A stretch of DNA of 64,000 bases from Bilabrum cf. latius (Eukaryota), in contig OZ237748.1 of NCBI GenBank assembly GCA_965178125.1, positions 558,001 to 622,000 of the forward strand, written 5' to 3'. Positions 21,730 through 47,439 of the stretch are shown here, one piece after another. Made by a program: the position numbers and the translations under genes. The notes under the pieces are model-generated. The model had not been told where the DNA came from and ran no database searches. It saw only the letters and a program-made list of their open reading frames with translations. Each line of letters starts with the position of its first letter. Position 1 is the first letter of the stretch.

Positions 21730-24349
21730 ACAAGAGGGAAAGGACCTAAGCCCGCCCCCCATGGGTCTGGAGATGGGAGTGGGTGGCGGGCCGGGTAGCG
21801 GGAGTGGAGAGCTGCCGTCGTGTGCCCGGGGGTCGCAGCCAGGCGCCAGCGATGCCGATGGTCGCAAGCAGGAGAGCGTCAGGCACAATGGGCGTGCCCG
21901 CCACGATGGAGGCATCGCAGAGTCGGGAAATGAACGTGAGCCGTAGGATGCCACTGGCTGCCGCCGTGGTGCTTCGAGGTGCTGCTGTCGGGGTGCTGGA
22001 GGGCGGTAGCTCGCAGATGTCAGCATTATATGAGCTCACGAGGTACAGAGTGCCTGCCGGCGGTCGGCGGCGGCGATGCAATTTGCCATGATTAGCTTCA
22101 TAGAGTCCATTGTCCCGGCGCGTCGTCGTCTCCCTGAAGCCTAGATCGCTCCCGCGGTCGATTTCAGCAGTGGCAGGGCGGAGGGAGGGCGAGCCGGCCG
22201 CTTGGAGCCCTCCCTCCCCAATCAAAGCAGCAGCGCACGCAGGCAATCGAATCTATTTCTTACTTGATTTTGTTTTAAAGCGCTGTTGCATCTGCGATGG
22301 GAGCTGACTGGAGCGCGGACGCGTTGTGCCTCGAGGCTCGTGGCGTTGGAAGCTGCTGTTGGTCCGCTCACTCGACTCACCGATGCTAGCACGGCTACCC
22401 CGCCATGGAATTGCGTGTTTGATATTCAATCAAGTAAGATTTCGTTGCTCGTGGCATCGATGCTGCGGGGAATGAGCTCACGATTGGAGGTGACAGCGTT
22501 TGCGCGCCACCTCAGTGCTCCTCCAGAGCCGGGCACGACATGGGCCGCCGATCGGCTAGCAGAAATCATGATGTTATAATGCAAATACAACAATCTATTG
22601 GCTTACCGTGGCATTCGAGAGGTGCAATGGATCGGATCGAGTGGAGCGCGAGGGGGATCGGATCAGGGCGCGGCAGGGAGGAGTTTATCCGGGCGCGCGA
22701 ATCCCTAAGGCTTTTTGTTTCGAGTGAGAATCGCCGAGCATACCGTTGCGTTCGGATTCGCTGGCATGGTAGCACAAAGTTACCCGCCGGATTAGCGAGA
22801 TATGTCCCGATCGCAGAGATAAGAGCCGAAACGCGGTAGCCGAACGGACAACTCGGGGTGGCAGGCACTTCCCGCCGCCGCAAGCTCCCCGCGCGATTGC
22901 GGCAGCGGCGCGCCCGCCCATTGAATGTAATCTTACAGCATTCAACTAAGTTCTCCGCTCGGTGCGGGAGCGGGCCCCGGCCCGCAAGCCCCCGATCCCG
23001 GATCCCGCCCCGACTCGTTCTAATATTATTGTTTATGTTACAAGAGGGAAAGGACCTAAGCCCGCCCCCCATGGGTCTGGAGATGGGAGTGGGTGGCGGG
23101 CCGGGTAGCGGGAGTGGAGAGCTGCCGTCGTGTGCCCGGGGGTCGCAGCCAGGCGCCAGCGATGCCGATGGTCGCAAGCAGGAGAGCGTCAGGCACAATG
23201 GGCGTGCCCGCCACGATGGAGGCATCGCAGAGTCGGGAAATGAACGTGAGCCGTAGGATGCCACTGGCTGCCGCCGTGGTGCTTCGAGGTGCTGCTGTCG
23301 GGGTGCTGGAGGGCGGTAGCTCGCAGATGTCAGCATTATATGAGCTCACGAGGTACAGAGTGCCTGCCGGCGGTCGGCGGCGGCGATGCAATTTGCCATG
23401 ATTAGCTTCATAGAGTCCATTGTCCCGGCGCGTCGTCGTCTCCCTGAAGCCTAGATCGCTCCCGCGGTCGATTTCAGCAGTGGCAGGGCGGAGGGAGGGC
23501 GAGCCGGCCGCTTGGAGCCCTCCCTCCCCAATCAAAGCAGCAGCGCACGCAGGCAATCGAATCTATTTCTTACTTGATTTTGTTTTAAAGCGCTGTTGCA
23601 TCTGCGATGGGAGCTGACTGGAGCGCGGACGCGTTGTGCCTCGAGGCTCGTGGCGTTGGAAGCTGCTGTTGGTCCGCTCACTCGACTCACCGATGCTAGC
23701 ACGGCTACCCCGCCATGGAATTGCGTGTTTGATATTCAATCAAGTAAGATTTCGTTGCTCGTGGCATCGATGCTGCGGGGAATGAGCTCACGATTGGAGG
23801 TGACAGCGTTTGCGCGCCACCTCAGTGCTCCTCCAGAGCCGGGCACGACATGGGCCGCCGATCGGCTAGCAGAAATCATGATGTTATAATGCAAATACAA
23901 CAATCTATTGGCTTACCGTGGCATTCGAGAGGTGCAATGGATCGGATCGAGTGGAGCGCGAGGGGGATCGGATCAGGGCGCGGCAGGGAGGAGTTTATCC
24001 GGGCGCGCGAATCCCTAAGGCTTTTTGTTTCGAGTGAGAATCGCCGAGCATACCGTTGCGTTCGGATTCGCTGGCATGGTAGCACAAAGTTACCCGCCGG
24101 ATTAGCGAGATATGTCCCGATCGCAGAGATAAGAGCCGAAACGCGGTAGCCGAACGGACAACTCGGGGTGGCAGGCACTTCCCGCCGCCGCAAGCTCCCC
24201 GCGCGATTGCGGCAGCGGCGCGCCCGCCCATTGAATGTAATCTTACAGCATTCAACTAAGTTCTCCGCTCGGTGCGGGAGCGGGCCCCGGCCCGCAAGCC
24301 CCCGATCCCGGATCCCGCCCCGACTCGTTCTAATATTATTGTTTATGTT
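21730..24349. repeat. Tandem duplication of a 1310-bp inserted unit (21730-23039, 23040-24349)
   Basis: Identical ORF sets are offset by 1310 bp. The unit is inserted in the intergenic motif tagtcagta|atagcaagc, which is uninterrupted at ~13080. Confidence 0.95.
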
Positions 24350-27033
24350 AAACTGTTTATGTTAATAGCAAGCAAGCAAGCAGTGGCCCGAGCTGCCATT
24401 CCAAGGCAAGCCCCAGACCCAGTTCAACTTCAAATCCAACTAACACATCCAACCACCTACCCCGATGAGACTCTCAAGAAGCCTCAGTTCGATCCATGCC
24501 CTCACGTGGGTCGATCGAACTTGGTCTGCCGTAGCAGCGTGCACGTAGCTACCCGTAGGATCCTCCTTCTCACAAGCCTAGATCTAGAGCTCATCCCTAG
24601 GCCTCCTGCAGCAGCTTCACGCAATCGTCGTGCCCACCCAGCCTGGCTGCCTCCAGTGGAAGCACCAGCCTAGAAGTCCCATCATCAAATGTCGTTATCC
24701 CCTTCATCTGCAACCCATCTGCCAGCTTGCCCAGCCTCAGCCTCCTGGCCAGCTCTAAAGGCCGCCCCTCACTCGCCGCCTGGAACACCATCCCAGCGTC
24801 CCTCTTGGCCTCCACTGCCCGCCTCCAGCACATGACTCTTCGAATATTAGAGCGAATGAATAACCGGACGGTGGTAGCGGTCTGTGATGCGCCACTTTTC
24901 TTAGCCTCCTGAGCGGGAGTCTTGCCATACTGCTCAATCAAAGGAAATGATGAAGAGAGGAGAGGTCGCTGTGTCAAAGATGTACGGGGGGTGGATTTGT
25001 GCGTGGGAGTATCCTTCTATTCATCTGGCGGAATGATGGGCATGTGCAAATCAAGAGCTGATGTGATACATCTGTAGAAGCTCACCTTGTTCTTAATGTC
25101 CCTGCGGGCCCCTGCCTCCATGAGGATTGTAACGCAGGCGGTGTAGCCATAGTACGCTGCCAAGTGAAGGGGAGTGTCTCCATTCTTCGGTTGAATCGGA
25201 GGGTACTGAAAGGTCATGGGCTTACATCGAACATTTCACGCATTTGCCCCGCCGATGGATTTTTCAGAGCCTTGTGCGGCAGCTGTCCGGAAGCGAGCCG
25301 ACGACCGAGAGGTAGCGCCAGGTGCACTGCCAAACCAATTCAAACCGCAATTTTAACAAACTGAATTTATCCATACAATACAAAACACGCATACGTCGCT
25401 ATGGATCCATTGCGGCTCCAGACCAGACAGTGCCGATCGATACGGGCTGTTGCCACGGAGTTCAGGCGCTGTGCTGGTACGGGTACCCATAATGCAGAAA
25501 ATGTGTCCAAACCATGATACCATACCATACTTACAGCCCGAGATACGCGTACAAGTTTCCAGCCCCAAACCATCAACACAGCGGGAGCACCGCGAAGCGA
25601 CCTGCCAGCGGGTCTCCAACCCGGGAGCGGGCAATTCCAAGCCGGACAGACACACACACCCTTCCAACATACAAGCGAACACTAATACAAGACTAACCTA
25701 TCCTTCAACAGTTTCCTCTATATCTCACCCTATCCACCGCATTCGCGCCTGCCCCATTTTCAATCAGTATCCGCAGACAATCCATCTTCACCTTCCAGGA
25801 TACCATATGAACGAGTGTATAGCCATTCTACGGTGGGCGATGGAAGAGAAAGGTTGGGGGGAGCAGGGGTTGCGCCTGGGGTTAGTGCGGGTGTGGATGT
25901 GTGTGGTCATGGGGCGAGTGATGGGCGTGCCGGGGGGGCTTTGGTACGAACGGGTGGAAGTCGCCATGGGCCCTAGGGGCGCAGTCCCCAGGTCGATTAC
26001 TGCTTGTGAGACAACATGGCCAAAATCAAAACCCAACCAAGCATACACCAATCTTCCTATCAAATCATTTCATCACGACAGGGACCGATCTCAGCCTCTG
26101 AATCCGACTTTGGGCTAAAGTAGCCGAGGGGCACTATTATGGGATGGTCGGCGGCCGCCTCGCTGGCTGTGGATATCCTGAAAACCAATCATCAGAAATG
26201 AGTACATCAATGCCATACTATGTATTTCAAATACAGATTATCAGTACTTAACCGTTGAACTTCGCCCATCAGAGGCGCAATCCAGGCAATGAGGATTGAG
26301 CTAAATGCTCGTCACACAGGAGTGTCCTGTTCCGCCCCGAGGAGCTGTCATCGATCGACAAACAACTTTGAACATAGCCAGTACACTAAGTCAACCAATA
26401 CGCAGATATTTGCCACCAAAAACCAAGACACGATTCTGGTGCATCCACATCCCACAAGCCACCACTCACTTGTCTTACCAAATAGGGGAGCCAGGTGGGC
26501 CAGCCGGGCGGGGCTGAGCGATGGCAAAACAACCTTGGATAAATGTTAGAAGACGTGCGTAGTCAAACTGTACCAGCATCCAATCTCCCGATCCACAAGT
26601 CAACAAGAACAAACTGCGGCTACTCTTGAGACCTCGTCTGTTGAGGGAAGCACTTGCCACGAGGGCCCGAATCGATCGACGAGGAGCCAGACAGATACTA
26701 TGCTAGCCACTCCAACGCATATAACCAGTATGCTGAGCTCTCAAGCCAAATTGAATATCCCATGTGCCGCCTACAACCTGCCCTGTCAGGCAGGCAGCCT
26801 CTCTCTCTCACGTCTTTGGCAGTGTTCACGTTGGCGCCGCTCTCGATGAGCAGCTTCAGGCTGACCGTATCGCCGTTGCACGCAGCCCAATATGCAGCTG
26901 TCCTACCATGCTGGGATGCACCAAGGAAATACAAAACCGGTGGGATGCAAATGCAAAAAAATTACATTGAAATATAAACAATCCGTGGAACAAGTGTGCA
27001 CAGCCTGACTAGATTCGAGGTGATCAACGTCAC

Positions 27034-27229
27034 GTCTTCCCAGTGCGTACTGCCACAAAATGACAATTATTACTGAGTATACCGGAGCACAGCTGTAGAC
27101 CACAGGTGCCACCGAAATTCCGAACAAGTGAGAGCCTCACATCTGCGCTCGGACTTGCGACCAATACTACACAATCTCTCCGATCTAAATCACTTCGTAA
27201 CGTGCCTCCGTACCTACGGCACACAACGG
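27034..27229 (-). mobile_element. Partial A repeat of the Ngaro-like element in an intron of gene 4
   Basis: Close match to 39284-39478. Confidence 0.85.
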
Positions 27230-28314
27230 ATGGCATCGGTCTAGGACCAACTTGAAGCTAGTACACTATATGAAGCAAGTACACTATATGTACCAATATA
27301 AACACATTTGCCTCCAAAACGAAGACACGATCCAGCCGGAACGGCCTCTGCCGCGCCTAAGGAAGGAGATGAGGGAATGCCTCGCAAGCTGCTGGTCACA
27401 CTGGCGGTTGCAACCTCACGTTGGTAGCCCGGAGCCTGTGTTCGAGTCGCGAACGCATCGCAACATCGACCCCGAACCCCATTCGGCATTAGCATTAGCA
27501 AGCCACCACTCACCTGCCTCACCCAGCACGAGGCCACGAGAGCCAGCCGGGCGGGGCTTAGCGACAGCAATACAACCTTGTTTAAATACTAGAAGACGTG
27601 AATGGCTAAATCATACCAACATACAATCGCAACCAACCACAAAACAACAATAATAAATCGCGCCTTCTTTTAAGCCCTCGTCAGTCACCGGGGAGCACTT
27701 GCTCAGGAGCCCGGCTCGATCGACAAGGAGCTAACTAGATGCCATGTCAGCCACCGTAATCAATACGAACAGGGTATCGACCCCCCAAAATCAAAATTGA
27801 TATCCTGAATATTACCAACAATTCGCCAAGGAGCACCCCTAGTTATGAAGCACTCGTTACAATGCTAGACCTACCCCTTCCTAAGGGGCTCTCTCACGTT
27901 GTCGGCAGCGTTCACGTTGGCGCCCCTCTCGATGAGCAGCTTCAGGCAGTCCGTCTATCTTTCCCGCGCTGCACAATACGCAGCTGTACAACTATCCTGC
28001 GATGCACCACAAAGACCTGAAACGGTGGGTAGATTACCGTGGGTGTCACACCCCGAGGGAAACGAGCAACCTGGTAGCGGGGGAAGGCACCCCGTGCTGG
28101 GGACCCATGCAGGGACAGCTTCATGGAAAGCGGTTGATTCCGCCGACCCATCCAAGTCTCTAGTCTATACAGTCTCGCCTATACCCGAGCAGCTGTCTCG
28201 CCTATCTAGATCTAGCGGGTTGCATCGTGGTGAGGATCCGCTCATTGCGAGGCGCGGAGAGCAAGCTTTACAAGAGGTGCATGTCACTGCCATTTACAGA
28301 AAGCAGCAGTGACA

Positions 28315-28422
28315 CTAAAGGAAATCCATTTTCACGAATAGACCCCCACTCTGGCTCCTGGAAGAATTCTAAAGGAAATCCATTTTCACGAATAGACCCC
28401 CACTCTGGCTCCTGGAAGAATT
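28315..28422. repeat. 54-bp perfect direct duplication
   Basis: ctaaaggaaatccattttcacgaatagacccccactctggctcctggaagaatt occurs twice in tandem. Confidence 0.95.
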
Positions 28423-28605
28423 CATGGCGTACATCAAACAGGTCTGCTTCGCTCCAAAGGTGGCTCGCTATCTCATCAACGGTGAGCCTTGTGACAGCCT
28501 GTACGCAAACCTCCTGCCCTTCACATTAACATCAATTCAAGAAGGGATCCAACAGCTCGACAAGTAGTACTCAATCTCACGCCATCTTTGGATTCGATGT
28601 CCGTT

Positions 28606-29296
28606 GGTGAGGCCAGCAAGGTCTCTGAGATTGAGGTCGCGCGGTGGGCGCAGGACCCGCTCGAGGTGCAGGAGCAGATGCGACGTAGCGATGCGGAGGA
28701 GTGAGAAAGATGCGACGTAGCGATGCGGAGGAGTGAGAGAGAGAGAGAAAGCGGCTAGGGATGCAGACTAGGAGCGGCGGCGACGCGGGGTGGGCGACGG
28801 ATGGAGAGGGGAGTGGTGTGGGTGGAGCAGAAGGAGAGGGCGAGGGATGGGGGGGGGCGGAGCAGAAGGAGAGGGCGAGGGGTGGGGGGGGTCGGGGTGG
28901 GGGCAGAGCAGAGAGAGAGGGCGAGGGATGGGGGAGGGGAGGGGGGATAGAGAGAGAAGGCGATAGATGGGCGGGGGGGGCAAAGCAGGGAGGAGGGGGG
29001 GGGGGGGGGCGGCGGTTCACCAAGTGGGGAGGAAGAAGTGGAGGAGAAGATGAGTGGTGGGGTCATCGGGTTGATACGGCGGATAGGAAGGGGGGAGGCA
29101 CAGGCCGGGCAGGTGGGGCTTTGGGCATGTGGGGGACGAGTGACTCGGATCAGGGGGGATCGGATCACCCGACGACGTGCGGATGTGGAAGTTAAGAGGT
29201 CACAATTAGACTCGAGCGGCAATCAAGCCGCGTGCTATTCGGGCGCTGAGGGGCAGCGCTCGCCAGTTTTCGCTTTCTTAACCTCTTGTGATCTCA
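28606..29296. mobile_element. ~690-bp purine-rich non-coding insertion flanked by duplicated GTT; partial copy at 58916-59283
   Basis: The empty site gatgtccgttcccgaatcc is seen in paralogues. The filled site reads ccgtt|ggtgaggccagc...gatctca|gttcc. The same left end follows ccgtt at 58911. Confidence 0.8.
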
Positions 29297-32218
29297 GTTC
29301 CTGAATCCAGGCAGGCCCTCAGGTCATCCACCTTGCCATATCTGGCTGCTGCTCGAAGTGCGTCTCCCCTGTGATTTTTGATGATTAACCTTAATATTCT
29401 ATGTATCATGTCAAGCAGACTTATGTGGATTGAATCCACGAGGAGATCTCAACACACCATAGGTAGCCTAAAAACAACAGCTACCACGGAGCGGTATCAG
29501 CCTCAACAAGTTGTACCAGTACTAAAATAAAGACACAAACTTTCTTACATTTCAAACTGATATCACAATGAGACTAGTGCCTTCCAAGAGGCGGTAGCAG
29601 CTGCCGACCAAGTGTGAGCGGAACTTATTTTGGCGCCGCGCACGGCCAGCGAGGCGCCCGGGTTCCGGGGGGGGTCTGATATTTTGTGGACTCAACTCAA
29701 AAGCGCACGCTATCACGAAGAAACATCTGGAACGAGGGCCCGGGACCTACCAGACTTCACGCTTCAGCTGCAATGGCCTAAACCACCTAAGCTCCACCCT
29801 GGGGACCCATTTCCCCCTGGGGAGCGTCAGCATTCACGTTCCCTCCGGCGCCCGCTGCCGGCACCCCGTCCTGCTGCCCGTTCTGAGCCAACCCTGCCTT
29901 GACGTTGGCGATCGCCACGGCGAGGTTGTTGTTTTCGGCTGCCCCTACAACCCGGGTTCCAGGACTTTCTTGTACAGTGCTGTTTGTTCGACAAGAAAAT
30001 CTTGATTTCCCATCTTTAGGCGACGGGCGCAGCTGCAAATCGCTTATCTCAGCAATAGAGTGGCCTGAACGATTGATATTAATACTTTATAGCTTCCCAT
30101 GTGCCTGCTTGGTCGAAAATATTATTGATGTCGGAGGTATCCGCCACGCATTGAATTCTGTTTTCGACAGGGCGGTCGTTCTCGGCGAATTTTGCAAGCT
30201 TCAGTGAGAGTATTAAAATGTCACACTGGAAATACATGGATATGAGCAAGTTCAACGTACTAGTTGGGTTTATTGTCAGCTGTACTTGAAATTGGCGTGC
30301 ACTGCCATGGCAGACGTAGCCATGCTGTGCAGCGATTCGCTGAACGTAGACCTAGTCGTCTACGATCTGAAATTTGTTTCCGATGCCAATTATCTATAAT
30401 AGATAGTATCTAGCGATAGTATGGAGGCTCGCTGCTACAGTTTCCCGTCGATTAGGCCCAGCAGCGCGGCAAAAGAACTCGACAGATTGGCGGGACTGAC
30501 ATCCAAGCCTGCGGACAACATCTGGTTTAAATTGAATTAAACTGATACACAGATGGTCAAATGCGAAAGATATTCTGCTTGTCCAGTCTATACATAGCGA
30601 GGCGCAAAGTTTACTGCTGCACTGGCTCACGATAAAACCGAGGGGAGAGGCTCTCCGGTCCAAAGAGACTCGCCTCTGCCTAGCGCATTAACACCAACTA
30701 TGAGTTTATGCGTGTTTACCTTCGTAGCAGCTCCATGAGCGTATCCTACACGCATGAGCATTGCAGCCATTGCAGCCATTGACAGCATCTGCTACACCGA
30801 GGTGTTGCCCCACTCCGGCGGGTCGCCTGTGAGCACCCGGAAGTGCCTGCGGCCTGGAAGGCCTCCGCAGACACGCTTGTCCTTGCACGTGGCACCGTGG
30901 CGAACTGACTAGATCAGTTCGACTACCTTGCCCTGCTTCCGGCACCCCGGGCAGACTCCCCACATGCACCGGGCGTTGCCCCAAGAGGTTGTGGGTGAAA
31001 CATGGTTGCCTTCGGTCTGTGCTAGTGGCTAGTATGCTTGCGTATGCATCCAGTTATTCGGCGTTATATCTTAAAACTGTGGTCTTTAATATTTCCTGGG
31101 AGTATGAGCTGTTTTCTCAATGTGGCATTCGATGAAAATGTCACATGAAAGAGCACCAGTTGATGGGCTGCAGGAGTGGTTTTCATTGATGTGTCGGGCG
31201 GTGTATCGATTTTTGTCATATCCCAGCACACAGTTCTTATCAAAATTACATTTGGTATCCAATTCTGCGCGCAGGGTAACAATAACTGGAAATTGCTTAG
31301 AAAATGGACGATTGGATGATCGGCACAGGTGCACCAGCTTCTATCCGGTCGAGCACCAGCAGATTATCGAATCGAAAGGCAGCGCAAATCGCATATTACA
31401 TAGCGTTAGAATGAACTCATTCAGTTTCCCGCGACTGCCTGCTCTGCAATGATGGAAGCGGACTGGTTCACAGGTATCTGCGATTCTAGGATACTAGGCT
31501 GTCACTATCGTGGCGCTTCCACGATCTGATTAAGGCTATCCTGTCACACAAAGCGAGTATTTCGCCAGAGACTCTTGGCTGAGATGATTCTCAACCTGTT
31601 GACGCATCTATTGGCGCCTCTGAACGCGTTGAGTTTGCCGATTCAGTGTGTCGATTATGCAAAGATTGGAACGCGATGGTAATCATGGGGATGCATGATT
31701 CGGAGGGGTAGAGTACCATAGCTCTGTGAGTCTTTCAGCGCCATCTGTCACGCGATGGGTGGCGCCATCGGCAGGGACACGAGGGTTCTCGTCCCGACCG
31801 ACGTCAACGAGGCAGCAGGAGCGGCCGCTCGGGTACTGGTGGGCGCAATACAGAAGACCGCATTGTCATATCAATCGACAAGATTAAAGTGCTAGGGGCT
31901 TGCATTCCAGGCGGACAGCCGCAGAAGGAGCCGTTCCTCTGCAGCACGTGCGCGACGCCTCTAGTCCTGCAGTTATGCAACGCCTGCAGCACTGGCAAAG
32001 CAGCAGTAAACGCACATGCGTCCAAGCCAATCCGATTCTTGTTTACCAGCATCCACAGGACGATTTCGCAGGGTGCGCCGGGTCAGGCAAATCCCGGGCA
32101 GGCGGGCGTATGTGGCAGCAGCAATGTCCCTCCCGCACGTGCATCGTGTCCTCCTCTGTCCTCTGCGGCAGCCTGCAGGATCCGGCCCAGGCACACATAG
32201 CCCCGACCGCATTGACAG

Positions 32219-32470
32219 TGGCAGGGGCAGGACAGGGCAGGGCATGGGCAGGGGCAGCAGCATGGGCAGGGGCAGCAGCAGGGGCAGGGGCAGCAGCAGG
32301 GGCAGGGGCAGCAGCATGGGCAGGGGCAGCAGCAGGGGCAGGGGCAGCAGCAGGGGCAGGGGCAGCAGCAGGGGCAGGGGCAGCAGCCGGGGCAGGGGCA
32401 GCAGCAGGGGCAGGGGCAGCAGCAGGGGCAGGGGCAGCAGCAGGGGCAGGGGAAGGGGCAGGGGCAAGGG
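32219..32470. repeat. 18-bp G-rich minisatellite (GGGGCAGGGGCAGCAGCA)n
   Basis: About 13 near-perfect units. Confidence 0.9.
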
Positions 32471-33536
32471 CGAGGTGGGGCACCCGATAGGCAATACCAT
32501 AAGAAGCAGCCCCGGCTCTCGTGCACCCCCGCCTGCTGTCCCCGGGCCAGGCACGTAACTTGAAGCGCAAGGCGGTACATCTGCCAGCACCAACAGCAGC
32601 AGCGCCGACGGTGCCGCGGAGGGTCAGGGCTTCCCGGGGTCCGCGGCCAGAATGCGGAATGTAGGAGATTAAGCCCTATGGTCGACGCTGATGACGATGG
32701 GAGCGAGATAAGGGCCGCGGACGATGCGGATGCGTCCGACCCGGGCTTCGGCCCAAGCGATGGGAGAGCAAATATTACGGCTGCTGCCACCCGAAGAACG
32801 AGCAGAAGGCGCATACGTAGGCAATGTTCGAGGACCCTCGATAGCAAGCTCCAAAAGTGCAGTTGGGGGGACTGGACAAGCCATGGCGTGATCCGTCGTG
32901 GTTGCTCACTGCGGTCTAGCGGTCTCATACCTATGCAACGAGGACGTCTGCTTGCTATTAGATACGTATAGTGCGATTTACACATTATATGGGACGAAAT
33001 TGACAGAAATGCAAACAGACGAGGCGCTAGAGCCGATTGTTTGGTTTGCTCGCTGTCATCTGTATTGCCTTATGTAGACTGCTACGCCTTATTTAGGACC
33101 CTTATCAACAAGCAGGTCTCAAAATCCAAGAACTGATATACTTAATATTTGAATGAGCTGAAAAGTCGCCTACCGCGTACACCGCGGTAGGTCTGAACCG
33201 GGCACTGCAGCAAGGTATGCTCAGTGTAGAAATGACATCCTTGGACGACAGATACAAATTACGACCAGTGATCTACCACGTCAACGACTGATTATATCAT
33301 TTTTGATTGCAACTCGGCCATTACAATCTGCGTTTAATTAAAATAGATGCTTCTAGCTGGGATTGAAGATTCGCTCCCAAACTCGATCATTGTTGCGTGC
33401 CAATTGTTAACCGGAATAGCAAAGTCCTGGAACCTAGATCTACGCGGGTACAGCTGGGTCCCCTGTTAAGGTGCGCGTTACTTTGGTGGCAGTCCTCGGA
33501 TTGTCGGAAAAAAAAAAAAAAAAATCTCCTTGGGAA

Positions 33537-35630
33537 ATGGATGACCCCGGGGGGGGTCAGATCGTCCTACGTTCAGGGCGTGTTGCCGGTAAGGGTAAGA
33601 TGCCCAGAATGGGTGTGGGAGTCGCGCAAAGATTCGCCTTGGGAAGGTTACTTGCCAAGGATTCTGCCGGTGCTGCCAGCGCCGCTTAGACCGGACCAGG
33701 AGTCTCCAACCCCCCCGATTCCAATGATTCTGATTCCGACGGAGTCATTGGACGCTAGCACTTCGGTCACGCTTAGCCTCCCTAGCCTGTGGGTGAGGCG
33801 GCGGTCGGAGGTGCAGCAATCGTGGTTGCTGAGGCGGCGCCGGGGGCAGATAATGCCGCAGTCGCCGCAGCTGAAGAAGATGCAGATCAGGGTGAAGCAA
33901 ATGTTCCACATGCAGTCCCACAAGTTGCCGGCGGGGCCGGAGCGGGGGTTCCTGCGGAGCATTAGGCGGCTGAGTTGGAGGCAGTGCCACTGCCCGACGA
34001 CGTTCGCAAGCTGATCCTTGAGTGTGCGTTCTGGCCCGAACGCGAGACAGCGCTTCGTAGTATGAATTTAGATTAGAAAAAGGAGGCGCGAGCCGCCCTT
34101 TCTCTCTTCCTGAAGGAGACTATGAATGTATCCTCCGCCTGGACCAACGATTCTGGTAAAGGCAAAGAACTGGAGGAGAAGCTCACGCTGTAGGCTTTAC
34201 ATAAGCTGAAAGTGTTTGTTTTGCTGTGTCGCCGGCCGTCGGATTCTCGTGTCCCGCGCGAAGCTGCCGCTGAGTAGGAAGCCATAGCTGGTGGAGCCGT
34301 GGTAGACCGAAAGAGTGGGAGCTCCCCATCTGATGATCCCGAGTCTCTCGCAGCCCGCGGGAGGATTGTGGAGAAGTTGGGGGGTATCCTTTCCAGCGTC
34401 AGTGGCAAGGGACTTCCTTCCCCCCCATCGCGCAAGGCAGTACGCAGTTGCCTCCGGTTTCTGTCGATCGGGGACTACCGTAAGGCCATGTCGCGGTTGG
34501 CTGCTAGGCCCCACGCTAGGGGTACGGCAGCCGAAATGCAGGCGAAGGTTTAGGGGAAGTTTCGCACCAAGAGGTCCCAGCCGATCCCCAGGTTCCGCTG
34601 GACACGCCCGGTGCGAAGAGGCCGACGAGGGGGAACTGGAGGAGACGCGCGCGAGCATGTGGTGGAGCTGTCGGGGGCTAGACTAGGGGAGGAGGTCTAG
34701 AAGGCCCTACGACTCAAGGCGCCAGATGCTTTTGGTGTGACGAGAGAGGTGCTGAAAACCTTGCTGACCGGGGAGGGAGCAGATGTGAAGCGGCTTTATG
34801 ACGACTTCCATGCCTTCTGCTAGTCCATGGTTGAGGGAGCCCTGCCGCCGTGCCTATTCGCGTGCCTGGGCCTGTTTCGAGGGGTCCCAATCCCGAAAGG
34901 GGAGGGGGGCTCGGAGTTCAGGGTCATCGCAATCCAGCCTCAGTGGCATACATTTGTGAGCCGAGCCCTTCGGCCCGAATTGCTGCCGAAGGTGTAGCGA
35001 GCTTGCGCCCCACACCAGATGGGGGCGGGGCTCAAGTGCGGGATGGACGGAGCCATTGCAACGATCCAGGTTCTTCTCAGCGCTAACCCTGAGTGGGTGG
35101 TCGCTGCGCTGGATGCCTCGGATGCATATGGCTCCATCCATCGGAAGGCGACCTTGCAAGCTTTGGCGTCGCTGTCCACCGGACTGGGCACTTACGTACA
35201 CCAGTGTCTGCAGCACGCAGTACATGGTGTTGTGTCTGGCGAGGATGGAACAGAGCTTGTGCAGAACCTGGAGGGGGTGCTGTAGGGGTCGCCATTGTCT
35301 CCAGCGCTGTTCTGCGCAGCCATTTAGGGCGCTCTGAAAGCGACAAAGATTGCCCACATGGATGTGTACCTAGTAGTGTACCTTGACGACGTGTTCCTGT
35401 TGGGGGAGCTAGATAATGTCAGGGCAGCCATCGCCACGTTGGAGGGGAAGTTGGGGGACGTCGGCCTCTCCCTCAACTAGAAGAAAACGTCGTTCTTCTC
35501 CCCCTCCCGAGCCACCTATTAGCGCCTGGTCCACCTATTGGCGCCAGACCAGGAGGATAGGCTCGAAGGAGTGGTCCACGAGCATGGGCTGAGGATCCTG
35601 GGCGTCCCGGTAGGGACCGAAGTCGGAGTG
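33537..35630 (+). CDS. Non-LTR retrotransposon ORF with reverse transcriptase (CRE/SLACS-like), 3'-truncated
   Basis: One frame contains PIPKG..FRVIAI, QMGAG, ALDASDAYGSIHR, GVL(TAG)GSPLSPALF, YLDDVFL, GLSLN(TAG)KKT and ILGVPVG. It has 16 in-frame TAG and no TAA/TGA, and is cut by the B repeat at 35630. The clade assignment is by motif resemblance. Confidence 0.9.
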
Positions 35631-37066
35631 ATCTATCACTGCGAGATTGTTTCGTCTTGGTCTACAGTCCTCGCTACGATGCTTGGCTCTCAGGGCGGTG
35701 GCGTATTGCCACCTTTGTAGACACGCGTGTGTCTAGTGACCGACCTGGCTCTATCTCCAGGTCATGTGCTAGTGGTCGGGCAGCCCCGGTATGGGCTGCC
35801 GAGTCACCATGCCTCACGGCTCTGCCAAGACTTGGATTGTCTTGGCGAAGCGGTTACAACCGCTAACAGCGCGAAGCAACAGCCCTGTATCGATTCACTG
35901 CCAGTCAGTGCTTGCTCAAGGGGGAAGGTGGGCGGGTAAAATGTGATGAGTTACGAATGAAAAGACTGGCGATGGGAAGCGATAGTAGGCACTGCTGCAG
36001 TAGGTAGCGCGGCAGTGGTAGTAACTGCGGGGATGGTGGGTGGGTTCAAAACAACAAGCAGTGGGAATCACCTCCTCTGGAGTTGCCCCTGCCTGTCTTC
36101 CCAGTGTGTATTGCCACATAATGACAATTATTACTGAGAATATCGGGGCACCGCTGTAGAACACAGGTGCCACCGAAATTCCGAACAAGTGAGAGCCTCA
36201 CATCTGCGCTCGGACTTGCGACCAATACTACACAATCTCTCCGATCTAAATCACTTCGTAACGTGCCTCCGTACCTACGGCACACAACTGACGGGATCTA
36301 TCACTGCGAGATTGTTTCGTCTTGGTCTACAGTCCTCGCTACGATGCTTGGCTCTCAGGGCGGTGGCGTATTGCCACCTTTGTAGACACGCGTGTGTCTA
36401 GTGACCGACCTGGCTCTATCTCCAGGTCATGTGCTAGTGGTCGGGCAGCCCCGGTATGGGCTGCCGAGTCACCATGCCTCACGGCTCTGCCAAGACTTGG
36501 ATTGTCTTGGCGAAGCGGTTACAACCGCTAACAGCGCGAAGCAACAGCCCTGTATCGATTCACTGCCAGTCAGTGCTTGCTCCGCCGTTACCCACATGCG
36601 GGGTATTGCACTGACGTGGTATTGCCCATTGCCGTATGTAATGCCGCGTGTACAGCAAAAGTATAGGGCGAGGTAGTGAAGTGAATCCTAGTTCTGTGCA
36701 CGGCCACTCAATGCATTGGTAGGTAAACCGATGCAAAAGGGTGCTACGAACTCCCAAGTGTCTCCCCAAAATGCTACTTCTTCCTTCCATCTAGAACGAT
36801 TGCTGGCAACATTAATTGACGCATACGTACCGAGACGAACTCCCAAAATCAAACTCCCACAATTGTCTAGATGGCAAATGGAAAACCCCTGATGCGTTGC
36901 AACCAAAATCCCAAAGACTATATTTAAATGAATTAAACTCCCAGTATTGGCTAGACTGCGCCGGGGTCGAACACACATGACGGGTCTGGCCGAGAAGCAG
37001 TGGAGGCTAGTGTTCGAACAATTATTATCGCCAACATGCCGTGATTCAATGCGTTGTGCAAATCAA

Positions 37067-38155
37067 TTAAACAAATATGCTATTGATGCTAGCAGCAAGG
37101 AACTCGGGCGTGGGATGCAAATAATCCTTGTAAGCATCGCTGGCCCACCTGCCTAAGGCCTACAAGACATCGGCCGGGACGCCACGTTCCAAGCAACACG
37201 TTGCTGCTCCATGGCGGAGGGAGTGAGCTGTTAGGCGCTCGAACCCGATAACCCCGGCAGCCTAGGCTGTATCTCGAATCAGATCGGTCCAGTGCCGCTT
37301 CGTCAAAATTGGTTTTCCTCTCCTGTGGGACCATGAGGGGGCCGTGGTCGGGAAAAGGCCGCTCGAGATGGAGAAATCCTTGCGGGCAGTCAGCCGACGG
37401 AGCCGCTCTCGCACGTTAAAGGGCGCAGGAGCCTCAGGGAATGCGATACAGCGATCGTCTTCGCCCCGCTAGTTAGTCTTGTCTCGAGGTAGAGCAAGGA
37501 TAAGGGTCTGTCCACTCTTGTCCAGGTGCCTCCATGTCAGAGGTACTGCGGCATCTTTGGCCGATGGGTAGCATTCGCTGCCACGAAGCATGCCGATAAA
37601 TGCCATCAACAATGCCACCTGACAGTGCTCGTCAGCGGCTGAGTGGCACGGCAGCTGGAGCATACGTCTCAGCTCGCTGAGACGGAGCGGCCGCTTCGAT
37701 GCCAAGTGCGCCGTGATATCGAATCTAGCGAGCGTATTGAACACACCCTTGACAAACTGCTTCACGGTACGGTCTTGGCGGGGGGAGACCCAGGCTGGTG
37801 TCCAGTCACGGCGCAGGGCGATGCTGGCGAGCTAACTTAGCTTCTTGAGCATCGTCCGAGATGAAGAGACTCGGCGCGGGGGTGACTTGCCGTTGCTTGA
37901 GACAGTGGGAGGCTGAGCTAAGGCTAGATCAAGAATGAAAGTCTTCAATCTGGCTGCAGTCACACCGAAATCACTCGAGCTCCTTCGATCCTCTTGCGAC
38001 ACTGACCGCCTCCATTGCTCCTGAGTTGCCCGATAATGGTCCCAGGTGGAGGCAGCAAGATCGGCAACCTCCGCTGCCCCTGCAAGCTCCTTGAGAGAGC
38101 TGGCTGACAGGCGAGCACCGGTCGAGACTGCCAGATGAAGCTGATGGCCGTCCAT
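37067..38155 (-). CDS. Tyrosine recombinase of the Ngaro-like element (~362 aa)
   Basis: Single frame with AFIGMLRGSE, DKTN(TAG)RG, HSLRHGAAT and VL(TAG)ALGRWASDAYKDY. It has four in-frame TAG (37832, 37469, 37262, ~37159) and ends at TAA 37067. The start ATG is inferred. Confidence 0.9.
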
Positions 38156-38174
38156 GTGGGCCGGGCCTCCCCCC

Positions 38175-39233
38175 TCATTTCTTGCCTTTGGTCTTGCCTG
38201 CACTAAGAGAAGAGGAAGCATCAGGCGGCAAGGCAAATCCCGAAGGGTGCAGGTCTTGAAGACACGCAATAGGGGGATGCAGGCGAAATGGCATCGCTGC
38301 CGTCACCGTGGATCGCGATGGGCCTGACGCGCAAGCAAGAGCATCAGCAAGCGTGTTAGCCTCGCGAGACAACCAGGCAGGCAGTAGGCCCGGCACAGCG
38401 AGTCGCTGAACCTCTTTAAAAATGAGGAACAGGGCTTCATTCAGTTGCCGAGACGAAGAACTTCGCTTTGCAACTGCCCCAGCGAGGGCTCCACTATCAC
38501 CAATCCAGACAGCGCCGGTGGCACCGTGGGTGGTATGAGAGCAGAACAACAAGGCCATGTACAGTCCGACCGCCTCGCGAAGTGTACTAGATGATGCTGC
38601 GAGAGCCGAACCAGGCGAGAAGTCGACAGCCAACGCGAGAGGCTTGACAGCGTGCCGTGGTCGCTCAATGATAGCCGCAGCGCCTGACTCCCCCGCGTCA
38701 GACGTGATGATGATGATGTCGTCCCAGAACCGTGGCGCCTGCAGAGGACAACAGGTAGGAGACCGGAGCCAATTGTCCAAGCCTGCCAGGCTGAGCTTGC
38801 CCAGCGACCAGTCCTCGGCCGTGAGCTCGTTGCCGTAGCGAAGACCATTTGCGATGCGGAACAGAGGTGCTATCCCGGAAGCAAGAGTCTGTCGACAAGC
38901 TGAGTACCACGAAGCTCTGCCTGCAAGTTTGCAGAGCATGCGGTAAAGTACGGCCCGTACGGCGCGAAGTTCACCGAGCAGAGCTGAAGGTGGCGACGTG
39001 CCTGCCGGCAACAGCTGCACTTGCGATGTCCACGTGTCCATTTCCGTCCACGCAGCACGGGCGATAGCAGCCACCATACGAGAATCAGCGGCCTTTGCAG
39101 CCGGTACCGTCATTGTGGCTCCAATGACAATCGAATGCAATATGTACCAAATCTATGCAATCTGTGCAGCTGGTCCGAACGGGCTCCCTAAGCGGGCATG
39201 CGAACGGAAACCGGCTGTGCAAATCAGCTCCTG
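38175..39233 (-). CDS. DIRS/Ngaro-type RNase H with RT connection region (5'-truncated pol)
   Basis: Motifs ITSDAGESG, SSTLREAVG, WIGDS, KRSSSSRQLN and WLSREANTLADAL give the D-E-D-D catalytic pattern. Ends at TGA. Confidence 0.85.
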
Positions 39234-39483
39234 TTCAAAACAACAAGCAGTGGGAATCACCTCCTCTGGAGTTGCCCCTGCCTGTCTTCCCAGTGTGTAT
39301 TGCCACATAATGACAATTATTACTGAGAATATCGGGGCACCGCTGTAGAACACAGGTGCCACCGAAATTCCGAACAAGTGAGAGCCTCACATCTGCGCTC
39401 GGACTTGCGACCAATACTACACAATCTCTCCGATCTAAATCACTTCGTAACGTGCCTCCGTACCTACGGCACACAACTGACGG

Positions 39484-41500
39484 CTACAAGCCGCCTACGA
39501 GCATGCTGGTGAAGAGCTCGTCACGATGCTAGACCTGACCCCTCCTGTCAATGGTATAGCACACCGCTCCATAACATCAATTACAGAGCCAACTGCATGC
39601 TATGCCAACGGGTGCGAGCCTGGATCAACATCTGATGGAGTATCCGCCACCGCTGCCCCATTCGCGAACGAGGCAGCTAGATAGTGCCCGGTGGCGCACA
39701 GCATTGATCAACTCAGTGCCCAATCGTGCGCCAACAGTAAATGTACTTAGATTTTGTACGCCATACTACAGCCAAACAACATCGGCACATCTGCAAAGTC
39801 GCAGCCGCCCTCTCTGGCAGTCAGCCTTCCTCTCTCACCTTGTTTGAAGCGTTAACGTTGGCGCCCCTCTCGATGAGCAACTTCAAGCAGTCCGTCTTGC
39901 CTCTCAATACTGCGTAATATGCTGCCGTCAGACCATACTGCGATGCACCAAAGAAAAATGAACCATTGGTAGGTAGGTAGCCGTGGGTGCAGCAATTGTG
40001 GACTGTCATTCGATCACTAGCAAGCTCTTTAACAACGAATACATGGACCTACTGCTCTATACGTCGACAATATTGTAGATGCATTCACAAAGCCCGGCCA
40101 GTTCTACTCAATCTCACCATGTCTTTGGAATTGACCTTCTTTCCCGAATCCAGGCAGGCCCTCAGGTCGTCCACCTTGCCATTTCCGGCTGCTGTCATGC
40201 GCGCGAATACCCTACGAGATTTAGAAACAAACTATTTAAACTGTATGAATCGCGTCAAACATATTCATGTGAATTGAATGCACCACCAGGATTGAATGCC
40301 ATCAGACTCCATGTGCTGAACCGCTAATAAGATCATGACATTGACTAAATATGTTTGCCTTACATTTCAAACTATTACCACAACCAGACCGGTGCCTCCT
40401 AAGCAGGTTGTAAATGGCCAATGGGCTGGGCCAGCGGTAGATCTAGCGCAAGTGTTAGCGGAACCTAATTAGGCGCCGCGCGCGGCCGGCGAGGTGCCCG
40501 GATCACATCTGGGCCTCTGTCGCGGTCGATGTAGATTAAATTCTCTTTCAACTGTGTCACTGATTTTAAATACTACATTTGCATCCACAAGCGCCACGCA
40601 TCGATGCAGGATGGTCGAGTTCGGTCAGGTGCCGCCGACCGCGCCCGAACATGCCCGTCTTCAAGTTGCTAGGCCCGCACGACGATTGTGTGAAATTACT
40701 TTCAAGCATATATCACGTAGTGGCAGCAAGTCTCTAGCTAGCCCGTCCAAAGCAGGTATTGCGCACTGGCCATCTCTAGCTAGCCCGTCTAAACGTGCTC
40801 GCGGCCGTCTGTAGGCCGTCCCAGCGGCTGCAGCCGCATGTGCAAGGATGAATGCTCTTGTTCAATTGCATATATATTGCATGAACTGCATGGAGCACCC
40901 CCGACCGGGCGAAGAAGTGCGGAGGTTTGCCCCGAACCTGTCCCGCCATCTCGCTGCGGTTTTGGCAGGCCGCGCCAGGCCGTCGCTCCCGCCCCCCCCT
41001 CCTCCCAGCCATGGCTCTCGCAAATATCTCTTGATCATCCACTGCCCTTCACGAGGGCACCCCCCTTCGGGTCTATCTACCAGAGGACCAGCGCAGGGGG
41101 TCGGACCGCTTCGAGGCGTCCGCTGGGTCGTACTCGTCCTCGCTGGACCCACCCCATGCCCGTGCCCGCCACGGCTTGTCGCTCATCCATTCAACTTCCG
41201 TCCCCGCCTTTTCCCCCTTTGCACCCACCCCTTCCCCCTTCTGCCTCTCATCTGCCCTTTGATGGCACCGCCCGAGGCAGCGTTCGAGCCACTTGCAGCG
41301 GCGGCATCCGATTGCGACTGCTTCCCCTGCCTCCGCCTCAAGGGCTGCCCGGTGACCCACCAGCGCGGCCCGCGACAGAGGGGCTCGCCGGTGCTCGGCC
41401 TCGCACAGCCGTAGCCAGAGCTCCTGCGTCAACGCCTCCAACACATCAACGGACCCGCCCCCCGCGTGATCCTCCCCCTCCTCACCAGTCTAGACCTCAT
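39484..41500. repeat. Segmental duplicate of ~49410-51640
   Basis: Near-identical exons (YGLTAAYYAVLRGKTDCLK...), introns and upstream region. Similarity decays toward the right end. Confidence 0.85.
39839..40365 (-). pseudogene. Ankyrin-repeat array gene 5, 5' fragment only; exons 40364-40365, 40118-40211, 39839-39937
   Basis: N-cap MVFARMTAAGNGKVDDLRACLDSGKKVNSKDM plus one type-A exon. The following intron is cut at 39484 by the Ngaro-like element and never resumes. Confidence 0.85.
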
Positions 41501-44173
41501 CCCTAGGCCTCCTGCAATAGCTTCACGCAATCGTCGTGCCCACCCAGCCTCGCTGCCTCTAGTGGAAGCACCAGCCTAGAGCTCCCACTACCATGGGTCG
41601 ATATCCCCTTGATCTCCAACCCACCTGCCAGCTTGCCCAGCCTCAGCCTCCTTGCCAGCTCCATGGGCCTGCCCTCACTCGCTGCCCTGAACACCATCGA
41701 TGCATCCCTCTTGGCTTCCATTGACCTCCTCCAGCACAGGACTCTCAGGACTCGAGATGGAATGAACGTCCGGATGGCAGCAGCTATGTTGGACTTGCCC
41801 AATGCGTCTGCCGTCTCGAGAGCAGTCTAACCATTCTGCTCGATCAAAGGAATCGAGGGAGAGAGGAGGGGCCATGGTGTCAAAGATGCATGGGGGGTGG
41901 ATTCGTGGGTGGAAGCGTCCTTCGATTCATCTGGCAGCACGATGGGTATGCGAAAATCTAGAGCTGTTGCGATGCAGCTGTGGAAGCTCACGTTGTTCTT
42001 GATGTCCCTGCGGGCCCCTGCTTCCATGAGGATGGTGGCGCATGCGGTGCGGCCATTGGACGCTGCCAAGTGAAGGGGGGTGTACCTATTCTGCGGTTGA
42101 ATCGGAGGGTTCTGAAAGCTCATGATGTAACATGGGTTATCTCAAACAATCTGCAATCCATTGCGATATCTCGGATCCAGAGTCGAATCCAATCGCAGGA
42201 TCCCACACGCGAATTCACATCGAAGAGTACAACCGATTGTAACATAGCATTCCTACAGCCCGAGATACGCGCACAACTGTCCAGCCCCAATCCGTTAACG
42301 CAGCGGAAGCACCACGAAGGGACCTCCCATCCGGTCTCGGACCCGGGAGCGGGCAATCCCAAGCCGAATTGACACACACACCAATTCAATACACAAACAC
42401 GCACACGCATGCACACACACGCACACACACACCCATACAAGCTCAAATTATCTCTTGATATCTCTCTCACCTCATCCACCGCATTCACGTCCCCCCCATT
42501 TTCAATCAGCATTCGAAGGCAATCCTTGAGCCCACTCGCGGATGCCGCATGAACAGGTGTGTTGCCACTCTGCTGTGGATGGATGGGAGACAGGGGGAGG
42601 CGGGGCAGGGGGTGTGCTTGGGGTGGGTGTGGGTGTGGATGTGTGCGGGCATGGGGCGGGTGATGGCGTGTATGGGGGGCCACTGGCACGGACCAATGGC
42701 AGTCACGCTGCGCCCTAGGAGCGCAGTTCCATGGTGTATTCCCGCTCGAGGGACAAAATCCTCAGAATCAAAACCCATCCAAACACGCACTTGTCTTCCA
42801 ATCAAGCCATTTCGTAACGACAGGGGCCGGTCGAGGAGCCCTGTGGGGGGACGAGCAGCGGCCGCCTAGCCGGCTGTGGACTTCAACAACGACAAATAAA
42901 CCAGATTGATCACATCAGTGACATACTTTGTGTGTAACTACTAGTAAAAACTCATTGAACTCTGCCGAATGGGGGCACACGACAGTCAATAAGGATCGAG
43001 CTGAATCCACGATGTATGCTCGTCACACAGGCCAGTCCTGTTCTCCCCCGGGGGGCTGTCATCGGCCTAGAATCAATCTCGCATATAGCTAGTAGACTAA
43101 GTCGACCAATTAGTATACATTTGCCTCAAAAACCTGGACACGATCTCAGCACCAATCCCATTCAATGCCATCTCGCCTCAGTGGGAAGGGAAGGCGTAAG
43201 CTTTTGATGTCTTGGGTTAGTCTGGGTATTGGTCCCCCTTCCCTTCCCCCAGTCTACCCCAAAAGCTGCCAGAGCCCGTCCGTCACAATGGCAGTTGGGT
43301 GGAGGCAGGCGGCGCAACACGATGAGTGAATCAGAGAACCAGACGTGCTCCAGTATCGAATATGCAGAAATAGAAACGACCAAAAGTGCATCTTTATAAC
43401 AACAGTACATGCGCCATGAAATCCTATCCGCCCTGCCTCTCTCTCTCACGTTGTCGGCAGCGTTCACGTTGGCGCTCCTCTCGATGAGCAGCTTCAGGCA
43501 GTGCGTCTTGCCGAACAATGCAGACCACCATACAGCTGTCTAACCACCCTGCGATGCACTGACGAAAGATGAAACCGTTGGTAGGTAGCCGTGGATGGCA
43601 AGCAGACCCCGAGGGAAGGGAGAAACCTGGTGGCGGGGGGTGAGGATCCGCTGATGGCCAGGCGCGGAGAGCAAGCAAAACAAGAGGTGCCTTTCACTAC
43701 CATGTACAGATAGCAGCATTGCAACTGTAGAAAAACAGCTTCCACAAGTTGCCCCCCTCTTTGGCTAGCCGATGAATTGATGGCGTGCATCAGGTCTGCC
43801 TTGCTTACAGTGGTGGATTGTCATCCGATCACAGTTGAGCTCTGTGAGAGCCTGTGCACAGACCGTTTCCCCTCACAACTAATGACAACTCAAAATGGAA
43901 TCCAAAAGCGCGCTCAGTCGTACTGAAACTCACGCCATCTTTGGATTCGATGTCTGTCCCCGAATCCAGGCAGGCCCTCAGGTCGTCCAACTTGCCATAT
44001 TTTGCTGCTGCTCTAAGTGCGTCGCCCCTGTGAATCTTAACGATTAATTCAAATACTGTATGTATCGCGTCGAACAGACTCGTAGATAGCTAGGATACAA
44101 CAGCTGCTACGGAGCGGTACCAGCCTGAACAAGTTATACTGGTAGCCAAATTATGGCACAAACTATCTTACAT
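41497..44173 (-). CDS. Ankyrin-repeat array gene 6; exons 44172-44173, 43934-44027, 43450-43548, 42471-42569, 41992-42090, 41497-41835
   Basis: Exon types A,B,C, all 99 nt. In-frame TAG at variable position 3 of two repeats (43540, 41827). Ends TAG-GGA-TGA. Confidence 0.85.
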
Positions 44174-44251
44174 CTTAAACTGATATCGAAATGAGACCAG
44201 TGCCTTCCAAGTAGGTTTGAAGATGGCCAGTAGATCTAGGCCACTCGGTAG

Positions 44252-45411
44252 CAGACCCCGGCGGGGGGGGGGGGCGCATTTCAGGTACTATGTGACGAGT
44301 GGGAGGGGGGTGTCGATCGACCCCAAATCGCCGCCCCCCCCTCCCCCCTCCTAAATCTCGGCATTCAGCGCCAACCAGCCAGCAACGTCAACAATTGACC
44401 AACAATTATACAAATGTAGTGGCATTTAAAATGATTACAGCCCATAATACATCATTTTCGTGCCTGAATGGGGCAGTTCGGACTCCGGCACTTGTGGTCG
44501 CAACTTGCACTTGGGCAATCAGCAGCCAATCACAGGTACATCTGCGTCATTTTGACGCTTTTCTGCCATGTGGCCGATGCGTACAGAAAGCGCGCATTGG
44601 CACAAACTGCATATTTTAGAATATCTAAAGTTGAGTTGCAGTCGAACGGCCTAAAACTTAAACGGCCATGGGTATTCACACTTGTCGGGAGATGAGCAGC
44701 TCCCAAGGCTGCTGGTGCTTCGGCCTCAAAGGTCGCAGTTAAGGGAAAATGGTGCCACAGTTGAGGCTAAGGATACTAACGCTGGGCTGATCCCGACGCA
44801 CACACATATAATGGCACAGATAGCAAGCAATCCTTACGTCTTGGTATCCGTACCGGCGGTCCCAGGCACAGCCATGCAACGACTGTCATGCCAAGACCAA
44901 CGGAGGGCAAGGTTGACGAAAGGAGTGATGATGCAAAATCAAGCATAGCCTACAGCTGAGCAGCTGCGCGTGCATGGACAGATATGATGCCACCTGCTGC
45001 GAAAGAAGCACACGCTCTGCAGCGGCCCAGAACGTACGTCAAGGCTTTCGTCAATAATAGACTGCTTTATGGCTATTTATTGAGGATTCAAGTAGGCTAG
45101 GGGAGGCATAAGGTCAATATGGAGGTGAGTTAGGCAATATGCGACAGGAGGCGAAATTCGGAACAATACAGATTTTTGGAGTTGCGTATCAAATTTGCAC
45201 GACCTCCGAAACAACACCAAGGGAATGACATAATAATATGAAAACTGCCCAAGCAACTTATCTTCACATAAAAACATCATTTCTACCTTTATTTCTTGAA
45301 TTAGAGCATTGTGGGCCGAGATACAGGGGGGGGGGGGGCAAACGGCCCTCTGGGGTGATCGTCGGGGGGGGGGGGAATCGACCGCCCCCCCCCCCCACCC
45401 GCCGGGGTCTG
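44252..45411. mobile_element. Non-autonomous hAT-like DNA transposon
   Basis: TIR cagaccccggcggg / cccgccggggtctg with a perfect 8-bp target duplication ctcggtag (44244-44251, 45412-45419). No transposase ORF seen. Confidence 0.88.
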
Positions 45412-47140: not shown

Positions 47141-47439
47141 TTAGGCGGAAAAACGCGACCGCCCTGAAAGCTAAGCAACGTAGCGGGGACTGTGCGCCAA
47201 TAATAAACGATCTCGCAGCCATATATCGCCATGGACTCGTAGTACCACCCCGATGAGGAAGGCCCCCTTGAGGATGCCCTGCCGCGGCGCGGGCCATGGA
47301 CTTGTAGTACTGCCCCTGCGCCCCGATCGGGGGGGCCCCCTTGAGGATGCCCTGCCGCGGCGCGGGCCATGCAGCAGAGTGCTTGCCGGGACCGATCCTG
47401 TATCCATTACCGCCAAATAACATCAACAATACAAGACTT

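Follow-up and report, generated by a model that had tools for sequence, protein, structure and literature searches.

The nuclear genetic code seldom changes, and cases in which UAG and UAA take on different meanings are even more uncommon. The question considered here is how TAG is read in a 64,000-nucleotide stretch of DNA from Bilabrum cf. latius (GenBank assembly GCA_965178125.1, contig OZ237748.1, positions 558,001 to 622,000 of the forward strand), the whole of which we call the window, and in particular in the reverse-transcriptase (RT) open reading frame (ORF) of a retroelement within it. Together with this frame, a tyrosine-recombinase element inserted in the RT element and a tandem family of ankyrin-repeat host genes make up three unrelated coding sets whose reading frames tolerate TAG but strictly exclude TAA and TGA. 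It is likely that TAG in this genome is a sense codon, most probably for glutamine, with TGA and probably also TAA serving as stops.

The closest described systems fall into several kinds. Reassignment of UAG alone to glutamine (the pattern of NCBI table 15) has been described in the fornicate Iotanema spirale, in the ciliate Protocruzia tuzeti and in two clades of phyllopharyngean ciliates (PMC11687900; also PMC5304391), and UAG has been assigned to leucine in a rhizarian and to serine in Scotinosphaera (PMC11687900), the latter being a green alga that retains TAA and TGA as stops (PMC8271138). Within the Ulvophyceae both TAA and TAG (TAR) are read as glutamine in Dasycladales, Trentepohliales, Cladophorales and Blastophysa (PMC2984419, PMC8271138). 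Finally, in Condylostoma, karyorelict ciliates and Blastocrithidia the same codon can act as stop or as sense according to context (PMC4967479, 10.1101/2022.04.12.488043, PMC12153298). A full-text literature search found no report of reassignment of UAG alone to glutamine in an alga.

The RT ORF (33537..35630, plus strand, 33537 being the start of the frame and not a mapped start codon) comprises 698 codons, and its translation meets TAG 16 times, TAA 0 times and TGA 0 times. The TAGs stand at codons 51, 74, 80, 83, 143, 180, 219, 247, 339, 388, 429, 487, 583, 597, 648 and 662, and these numbers reproduce exactly all 16 coordinates given by a sequence-only reading of the locus, which had likewise counted no TAA or TGA. 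Since the two remaining frames of this segment hold 0 TAA with 12 TGA and 8 TAA with 16 TGA (and 8 and 5 TAG, respectively), the absence of TAA and TGA from the RT frame is not a matter of chance, the Poisson probability of finding none being between ~6e-6 and 4e-11 for means of 12 to 24. With TAG translated as glutamine, residues 458-690 match the Pfam family RVT_1 (E=1.3e-17), and a search of 1.84 billion protein representatives returned 2443 HMMER matches at E<=0.001. Full-length homologues align to the RT without interruption (P0004, for instance, over RT residues 386-693), and the frame is therefore free of frameshifts, as had been claimed from the letters alone.

The window copy of the RT is nevertheless incomplete at its 3' end. 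Its homologues extend ~300 residues past the end of the window ORF, and the contigs that cover the RT cease to match the window at 35630. Among these, a contig of 3809 bases from run X8 matches 33535-35630 without gaps and shows 17 differences there, its further 1685 bases being different from the window. Because the sequences part at 35630 and a repeat-bearing element begins precisely there, we conclude that this RT copy was cut short by a recent insertion. A tblastn search for the 3' remainder of the RT beyond the insertion (after 39483) gave nothing better than E=0.02, and metagenome scans for related loci, with the RT and P0079 as queries, yielded no confirmed relative in either. On the other side of the frame (33500-33535), the contigs of four runs that cover the RT all start at 33535, just past an A-rich stretch, which was skipped as a repeat in contig matching.

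The insertion (35630..39483, minus strand) is similar to tyrosine-recombinase retroelements with split direct repeats. Repeat A (35630-35917 = 36295-36582) measures 288 bases and repeat B (36044-36294 = 39233-39483) 251 bases, and since both are 100% identical between their copies the insertion must be recent; a contig of run X2 begins at 39484, just past the end of the element. Ngaro/PAT-like elements have repeats in the order A1 ... B1 A2 ... B2, an ORF for a tyrosine recombinase and an RT of their own. The element in the window shares with them the A ... B A ... B layout and the recombinase ORF, but differs in that no RT lies within 35630-39483, such that it may be a non-autonomous element without its own RT. 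The recombinase ORF (37067..38302, minus strand) contains 4 in-frame TAGs and ends with TAA, the next TGA being seven codons further on; residues 206-390 match Phage_integrase (E=5.3e-10), and three of the four TAGs lie within this Pfam-matched catalytic stretch. An ORF upstream of it (38175..39386, minus strand) has 1 in-frame TAG and ends with TGA. Neither of these two frames meets any stop other than TAG before its end. The upstream ORF had been labelled RNase H, a designation left unconfirmed here, as no Pfam family matches it at E<=0.01. A word-index protein search with the recombinase found no homologues, and its matches among PDB sequences were at chance level, the best real relative being XerC-like (E=0.24). 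No further copy of either the RT or the recombinase is present in the window. Pieces of repeat B recur at 3072-3224 (98% at the protein level) and at 27032-27136 (80%).

The third coding set consists of host genes. A tandem ankyrin-repeat family extends over 3901..63973 on the minus strand and comprises 44 exon matches belonging to at least nine genes. One of these genes (47446..50075, minus strand) has its five exons (50075-49767, 48951-48856, 48504-48406, 48047-47948 and 47780-47446) joined in contigs of runs X6 and X8, record 29 of X8 having a length of 733 bases, equal to the sum of its pieces. The four introns, 167-815 bases long, are bounded by GT-AG in three instances and by GC-AG in one. 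The joined frame is open for ~300 codons, up to its end EEAKGR-TAA. A single TAG (48472-48474) stands mid-repeat in this frame and has ~190 open, conserved codons after it, and among the differences listed for the joined contigs none falls at this TAG.

For the whole family, the exons were sought by ungapped tblastn of the window, exon by exon, with all three stops scored alike, and the 44 matches, five of which are the query gene itself, amount to 2184 codons. The counts of TAG/TAA/TGA are 15/0/0 in frame 0, 19/9/78 in frame 1 and 21/24/56 in frame 2, which means that TAG is not depleted in the coding frame, whereas TAA and TGA, of which the other frames together contain 33 and 134, are excluded from it. 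The 15 TAGs resolve into nine internal singletons in nine different exons (first bases, minus strand: 4944, 12170, 13809, 16986, 27957, 41829, 43542, 48474 and 51869) and six occurrences of one shared near-terminal site (7295, 13314, 24599, 41505, 51641 and 60203, minus strand). Exon-border dinucleotides are those of the contig-supported gene in 40 of the 44 matches, including all nine exons that bear an internal TAG. The genes, at least nine in number, have in common a C-terminal domain (...WRRAVEAKRDA...EGRPMEL...LGKLAGGL...) which has no Pfam family of its own; the exon encoding it has just six database relatives, proteins without a name that come from assemblies of metagenomes or runs, and the ESM Atlas returned generic ankyrin clusters with no usable taxon. 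The first exon of the contig-supported gene is found twice, 39839-39997 being 100% identical to 49767-49925 over 159 bases, which marks a segmental duplication; directly below the copy at 39839-39997 come the RT and recombinase elements.

Pooled over the RT, the recombinase, the upstream ORF and the 44 ankyrin exons, ~3700 codons include 36 TAG, 0 TAA and 0 TGA, and we regard it as very likely that TAG is read as sense. The next question is then which amino acid it specifies. The TAG at 35283..35285 (plus strand, codon 583) occupies the glutamine position of the RT motif GVLQGSPLSP, where glutamine is present in all 146 aligned homologues; the sequence-only reading had described this position as near-invariant, and the alignment bears it out. 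At the TAG of codon 597 (35325) glutamine is the commonest residue (65/146). Seven TAG columns of the RT have at least 20 aligned homologues, five of them, besides 583 and 597, being variable, and the log-odds summed over the seven are +7.6 for glutamine and -0.4 for the next residue, histidine; when column 583 is left aside, glutamine is still first, at +4.5 vs +3.0 for histidine. Similarly, the ankyrin TAG at 12170 falls in a column where 10 of 10 paralogues have glutamine. The informative glutamine columns thus number three in all and derive from the RT and the ankyrin family, none from a housekeeping gene. At other sites, in RT relatives as well as in ankyrin paralogues, TAG faces lysine, glutamate or arginine, the usual exchange partners of glutamine. 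Given that TAG is sense, these columns make it highly probable that it would stand for glutamine. The proposal that UAG is sense and most likely glutamine is in this way supported by the RT, by the recombinase element and by the ankyrin exons, as well as by the glutamine columns.

On such a reading an in-frame TAG would arise by a single-base change, which would be silent from CAG and missense from AAG, GAG, TGG or TAY, and the resulting codons would persist in functional genes. Decoding would be by a tRNA-Gln with anticodon CUA, and eRF1 would no longer recognise UAG, both as in other lineages with the same code. The likeness to Iotanema, Protocruzia and the phyllopharyngeans consists in TAG at glutamine columns, in the complete lack of in-frame TAA and TGA and in gene ends at TGA or TAA. 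Unlike these heterotrophic protists, however, the window combines named RT relatives from green algae with ~55% G+C and introns of 167 to 815 bases.

If TAG is glutamine, the alternative that deserves most attention is that TAA is glutamine too, with TGA as the sole stop and TAA rare simply because the genome is rich in G+C, which is the ulvophycean code. The named RT relatives are green algae (three from Cymbomonas, one from Closterium), and in ulvophytes that read TAR as glutamine TAG is far commoner than TAA (PMC2984419). The window shares with those algae a plausible green-lineage setting, TAG as glutamine, a large excess of TAG over TAA in G+C-rich genes and TGA as a stop. It differs from them in the absence of in-frame TAA and in two genes that appear to end with TAA. 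Were TAA:TAG to follow CAA:CAG (14:60 over four sets), ~8.4 in-frame TAA would be expected for 36 TAG; 0 were seen in the ~3700 codons (P(0) ~2e-4), an argument that the small sample makes tentative. The gene ends in the window are TGA or TAA, but neither of the two TAA ends is discriminating; that of the recombinase, for example, has a TGA seven codons later. The ankyrin copy at 47505 has CGG in place of the usual TGA, with TAA directly after it, so that the length of the protein is kept if TAA stops. On this evidence we consider the ulvophycean code unlikely and, given TAG as glutamine, a continued role of TAA as a stop rather likely. The claim that UAA and UGA are both still stops agrees with the absence of either from the reading frames; for UAA the evidence consists of that absence together with two ends that do not discriminate.

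A second alternative is that TAG has a dual meaning, being sense in the interior of genes but ending translation close to some 3' ends, a situation known from some ciliates and trypanosomatids. It is suggested by the ankyrin gene ends, since seven of nine read ...EA TAG in the same family that has nine internal TAGs. In six of the seven (7290, 13309, 24594, 41500, 51636 and 60198) the sequence goes on GGA TGA, and in one (near 56966) there are five codons more to TAG TGA; of the other two genes, the copy at 47505 has AAG GGG CGG TAA and one runs on. The statement that most ankyrin genes end in TGA hence needs qualification: the TGA is there, yet the end is not a clean one, TAG standing just before it in seven of nine. 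Six ankyrin proteins end QG if TAG is sense; otherwise each is two codons shorter and has a back-up stop behind its end. Because the near-terminal TAG is one inherited site of recent paralogues, and as such a single event, it carries little weight either way; moreover, the paralogue at 47505 has AAG at this site and continues two codons to TAA. The situation resembles the context-dependent codes in having TAG both inside genes and just before the end of most ankyrin genes, but differs from them in that there is no sign here of TAG terminating, nor does TAA or TGA ever occur in frame. A dual meaning is for these reasons distinctly unlikely.

It is also conceivable that the code is standard, that the RT is dead, as are those ankyrin copies that bear TAG, and that TAG is plain nonsense, produced chiefly from CAG by deamination of methylated CWG or by a process similar to repeat-induced point mutation (RIP). 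Glutamine at the two conserved RT columns would be expected from decay of CAG as well, of three TAG sites two have a glutamine of CAG/CAA type in a near-identical RT copy, the insertion has truncated the RT and one ankyrin TAG replaces an invariant tryptophan. However, symmetric deamination of CWG predicts as many CAA as TAG, and the RT has 3 CAA vs 16 TAG; the ratio (CTA+TTG)/CTG is 0.78 in the RT vs 0.60 in the ankyrin host exons; and RT TAGs are enriched in the coding frame (16, as against 8 and 5) instead of being evenly spread. The dinucleotide indices of RIP are unremarkable, at 0.75 and 1.28 in the RT and 0.62 and 1.44 in the window. The thresholds used for this comparison come from the fungal literature. 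Furthermore, the ankyrin TAGs at columns of lysine, tryptophan and other aromatic residues would need substitutions of A>T, G>A and Y>G, and no single mutational process yields all of these. Decay would also have to spare 36 TAGs from the company of even one TAA or TGA in ~3700 codons, the RT from frameshifts, the splice dinucleotides of all nine TAG-bearing exons from change and the repeats of the recombinase element from any departure from 100% identity. With the codon usage of the ankyrin exons, the nonsense spectrum expected under the standard code is TAG 0.53, TGA 0.30 and TAA 0.17, which gives a probability of 3.5e-3 for nine TAGs out of nine at the internal ankyrin sites alone, the 16 of 16 in the RT and the 5 of 5 in the recombinase element not being included. 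The sequence-only reading had named TAG confined to repeats, accompanied by an excess of CTG->CTA change, as the observation that would speak for decay; what is found is TAG in host genes and no excess of CTA, TTG or CAA. Decay under the standard code is accordingly very improbable.

Several observations nonetheless weigh against TAG as a glutamine codon, and they are best taken together. The other RT copy has Q, E and Q at three of the window's TAG sites. TAG makes up 16 of 31 glutamine-type codons in the RT vs 9 of 45 in the ankyrin exons, the near-terminal site being set aside. Paralogue residues at the internal ankyrin TAG columns are Q in 10/10 at one, K in 8/10, 6/8 and 4/7 at three, W in 8/8 at one and mixed in four, with aromatic (Tyr/Trp/Phe) columns also represented; the TAG at the tryptophan conserved in 8/8 and the three at lysine-dominated columns could be nonsense in dead copies, and the copy with TAG at the invariant tryptophan may be such a dead one. 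The near-terminal TAG after ...EA in seven of nine ankyrin genes, six times two codons before TGA, could be a real terminator. For runs X6 and X8 the type is a guess, X6 being marked 'probably DNA', and the joined ankyrin exons may represent a retrocopy and not RNA. A tRNA scan of the 64,000 nucleotides returned 0 genes, and Rfam at its gathering score gave 0 matches in the window. Lastly, the one candidate for a conserved single-copy gene with a housekeeping role, an RRP5 S1-like ORF (19619-20824, plus strand; 402 codons, G+C-rich, 2 in-frame TAG), is below the Pfam cut-off (E=2.6e-4, 21.9 bits vs 27), and it may be a diverged housekeeping gene. A word-index search of the 'longer' proteins found no homologues of it, and a three-frame Pfam scan of 17001-26002, with all stops written as X, returned the sub-threshold S1_RRP5 match and no other.

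A further alternative, and again a very improbable one, is that TAG, though a sense codon, specifies some other residue, be it serine (as in Scotinosphaera), leucine, glutamate or lysine. Three ankyrin TAGs do fall in lysine-dominated columns, four TAG sites of the RT are occupied in its relatives by K, E, E or R, and a green alga with TAG as serine exists (PMC8271138). Against this, glutamine is found in 146/146 and 65/146 homologues at the two RT columns and in 10/10 paralogues at the ankyrin column, the log-odds are +7.6 for glutamine and at most -0.4 for all others, and lysine, glutamate and arginine opposite TAG can be explained as exchange partners of glutamine. As in Scotinosphaera, TAG alone would be reassigned in the window, with TAA and TGA as stops; unlike in that alga, TAG is here at invariant glutamine and not serine columns. 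TAG does not fall at conserved serine columns, the two conserved RT columns being glutamine, and over the seven RT columns serine is outside the six best-scoring residues. Three further candidates were dropped: programmed readthrough, as 16 successive events are implausible; pyrrolysine, in view of TAG at glutamine columns and the eukaryotic setting; and U>C RNA editing, as the differences listed for the joined contigs include none at the TAG and the outcome would be glutamine in any case.

Protein fragments from other copies and relatives of the RT, whose ends are known at the level of protein sequence, also speak for TAG as a glutamine codon and against decay. The ORF fragments P0001, P0002 and P0003, 99-100% identical to the window RT by HMMER, end just before the TAGs at codons 339, 487 and 583, P0003 (another copy, 99% identical) thus stopping immediately ahead of the TAG at 35283. 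Fragments from relatives of 52-73% identity end right before the canonical glutamines 467 and 672 of the window, as would be expected if related elements carry this same stop-like codon at other glutamine sites. The remaining ends are those of one pair before serine 319 and of one fragment at residue 448, on a contig of 770 bases. If TAG is indeed glutamine, annotation of this genome with the standard code would cut genes at each TAG, and P0001, P0002 and P0003 would be such fragments already in the database.

With respect to the host, among the 18 best RT matches looked up, those with names belong to Cymbomonas tetramitiformis (three) and Closterium (one), one other being called 'hypothetical protein' and the rest having no name. 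It is plausible on this basis that the host is a green-lineage alga. A search for a relic of the dinoflagellate spliced leader gave one match with 2 mismatches in the window, a score equalled by 17 of 100 shuffles. Taking host and code together, we would suggest only tentatively, and with some doubt, that an alga of the green lineage has undergone an undescribed, independent reassignment of UAG alone to glutamine, UAA and UGA still serving as stops. If true, this would add one more independent alteration of the nuclear code in the green algae or their close neighbours. As far as the excerpts of the literature cited above go, such a code has been reported solely from a fornicate and from ciliates, and the green algae are known for TAR as glutamine and TAG as serine. 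Each new lineage of this kind tests ideas on the co-evolution of release factor and suppressor tRNAs.

Two other repeat structures occur in the window. A tandem duplication of ~1.3 kb relates 21674-22429 to 23041-23739 and 22438-23340 to 23748-24362, the ORFs being identical in both copies. At 32188-32511, an 18-base tandem repeat with 13 copies in overlapping register gives rise to low complexity of the GAGAAA/PLPLLL type in several frames.

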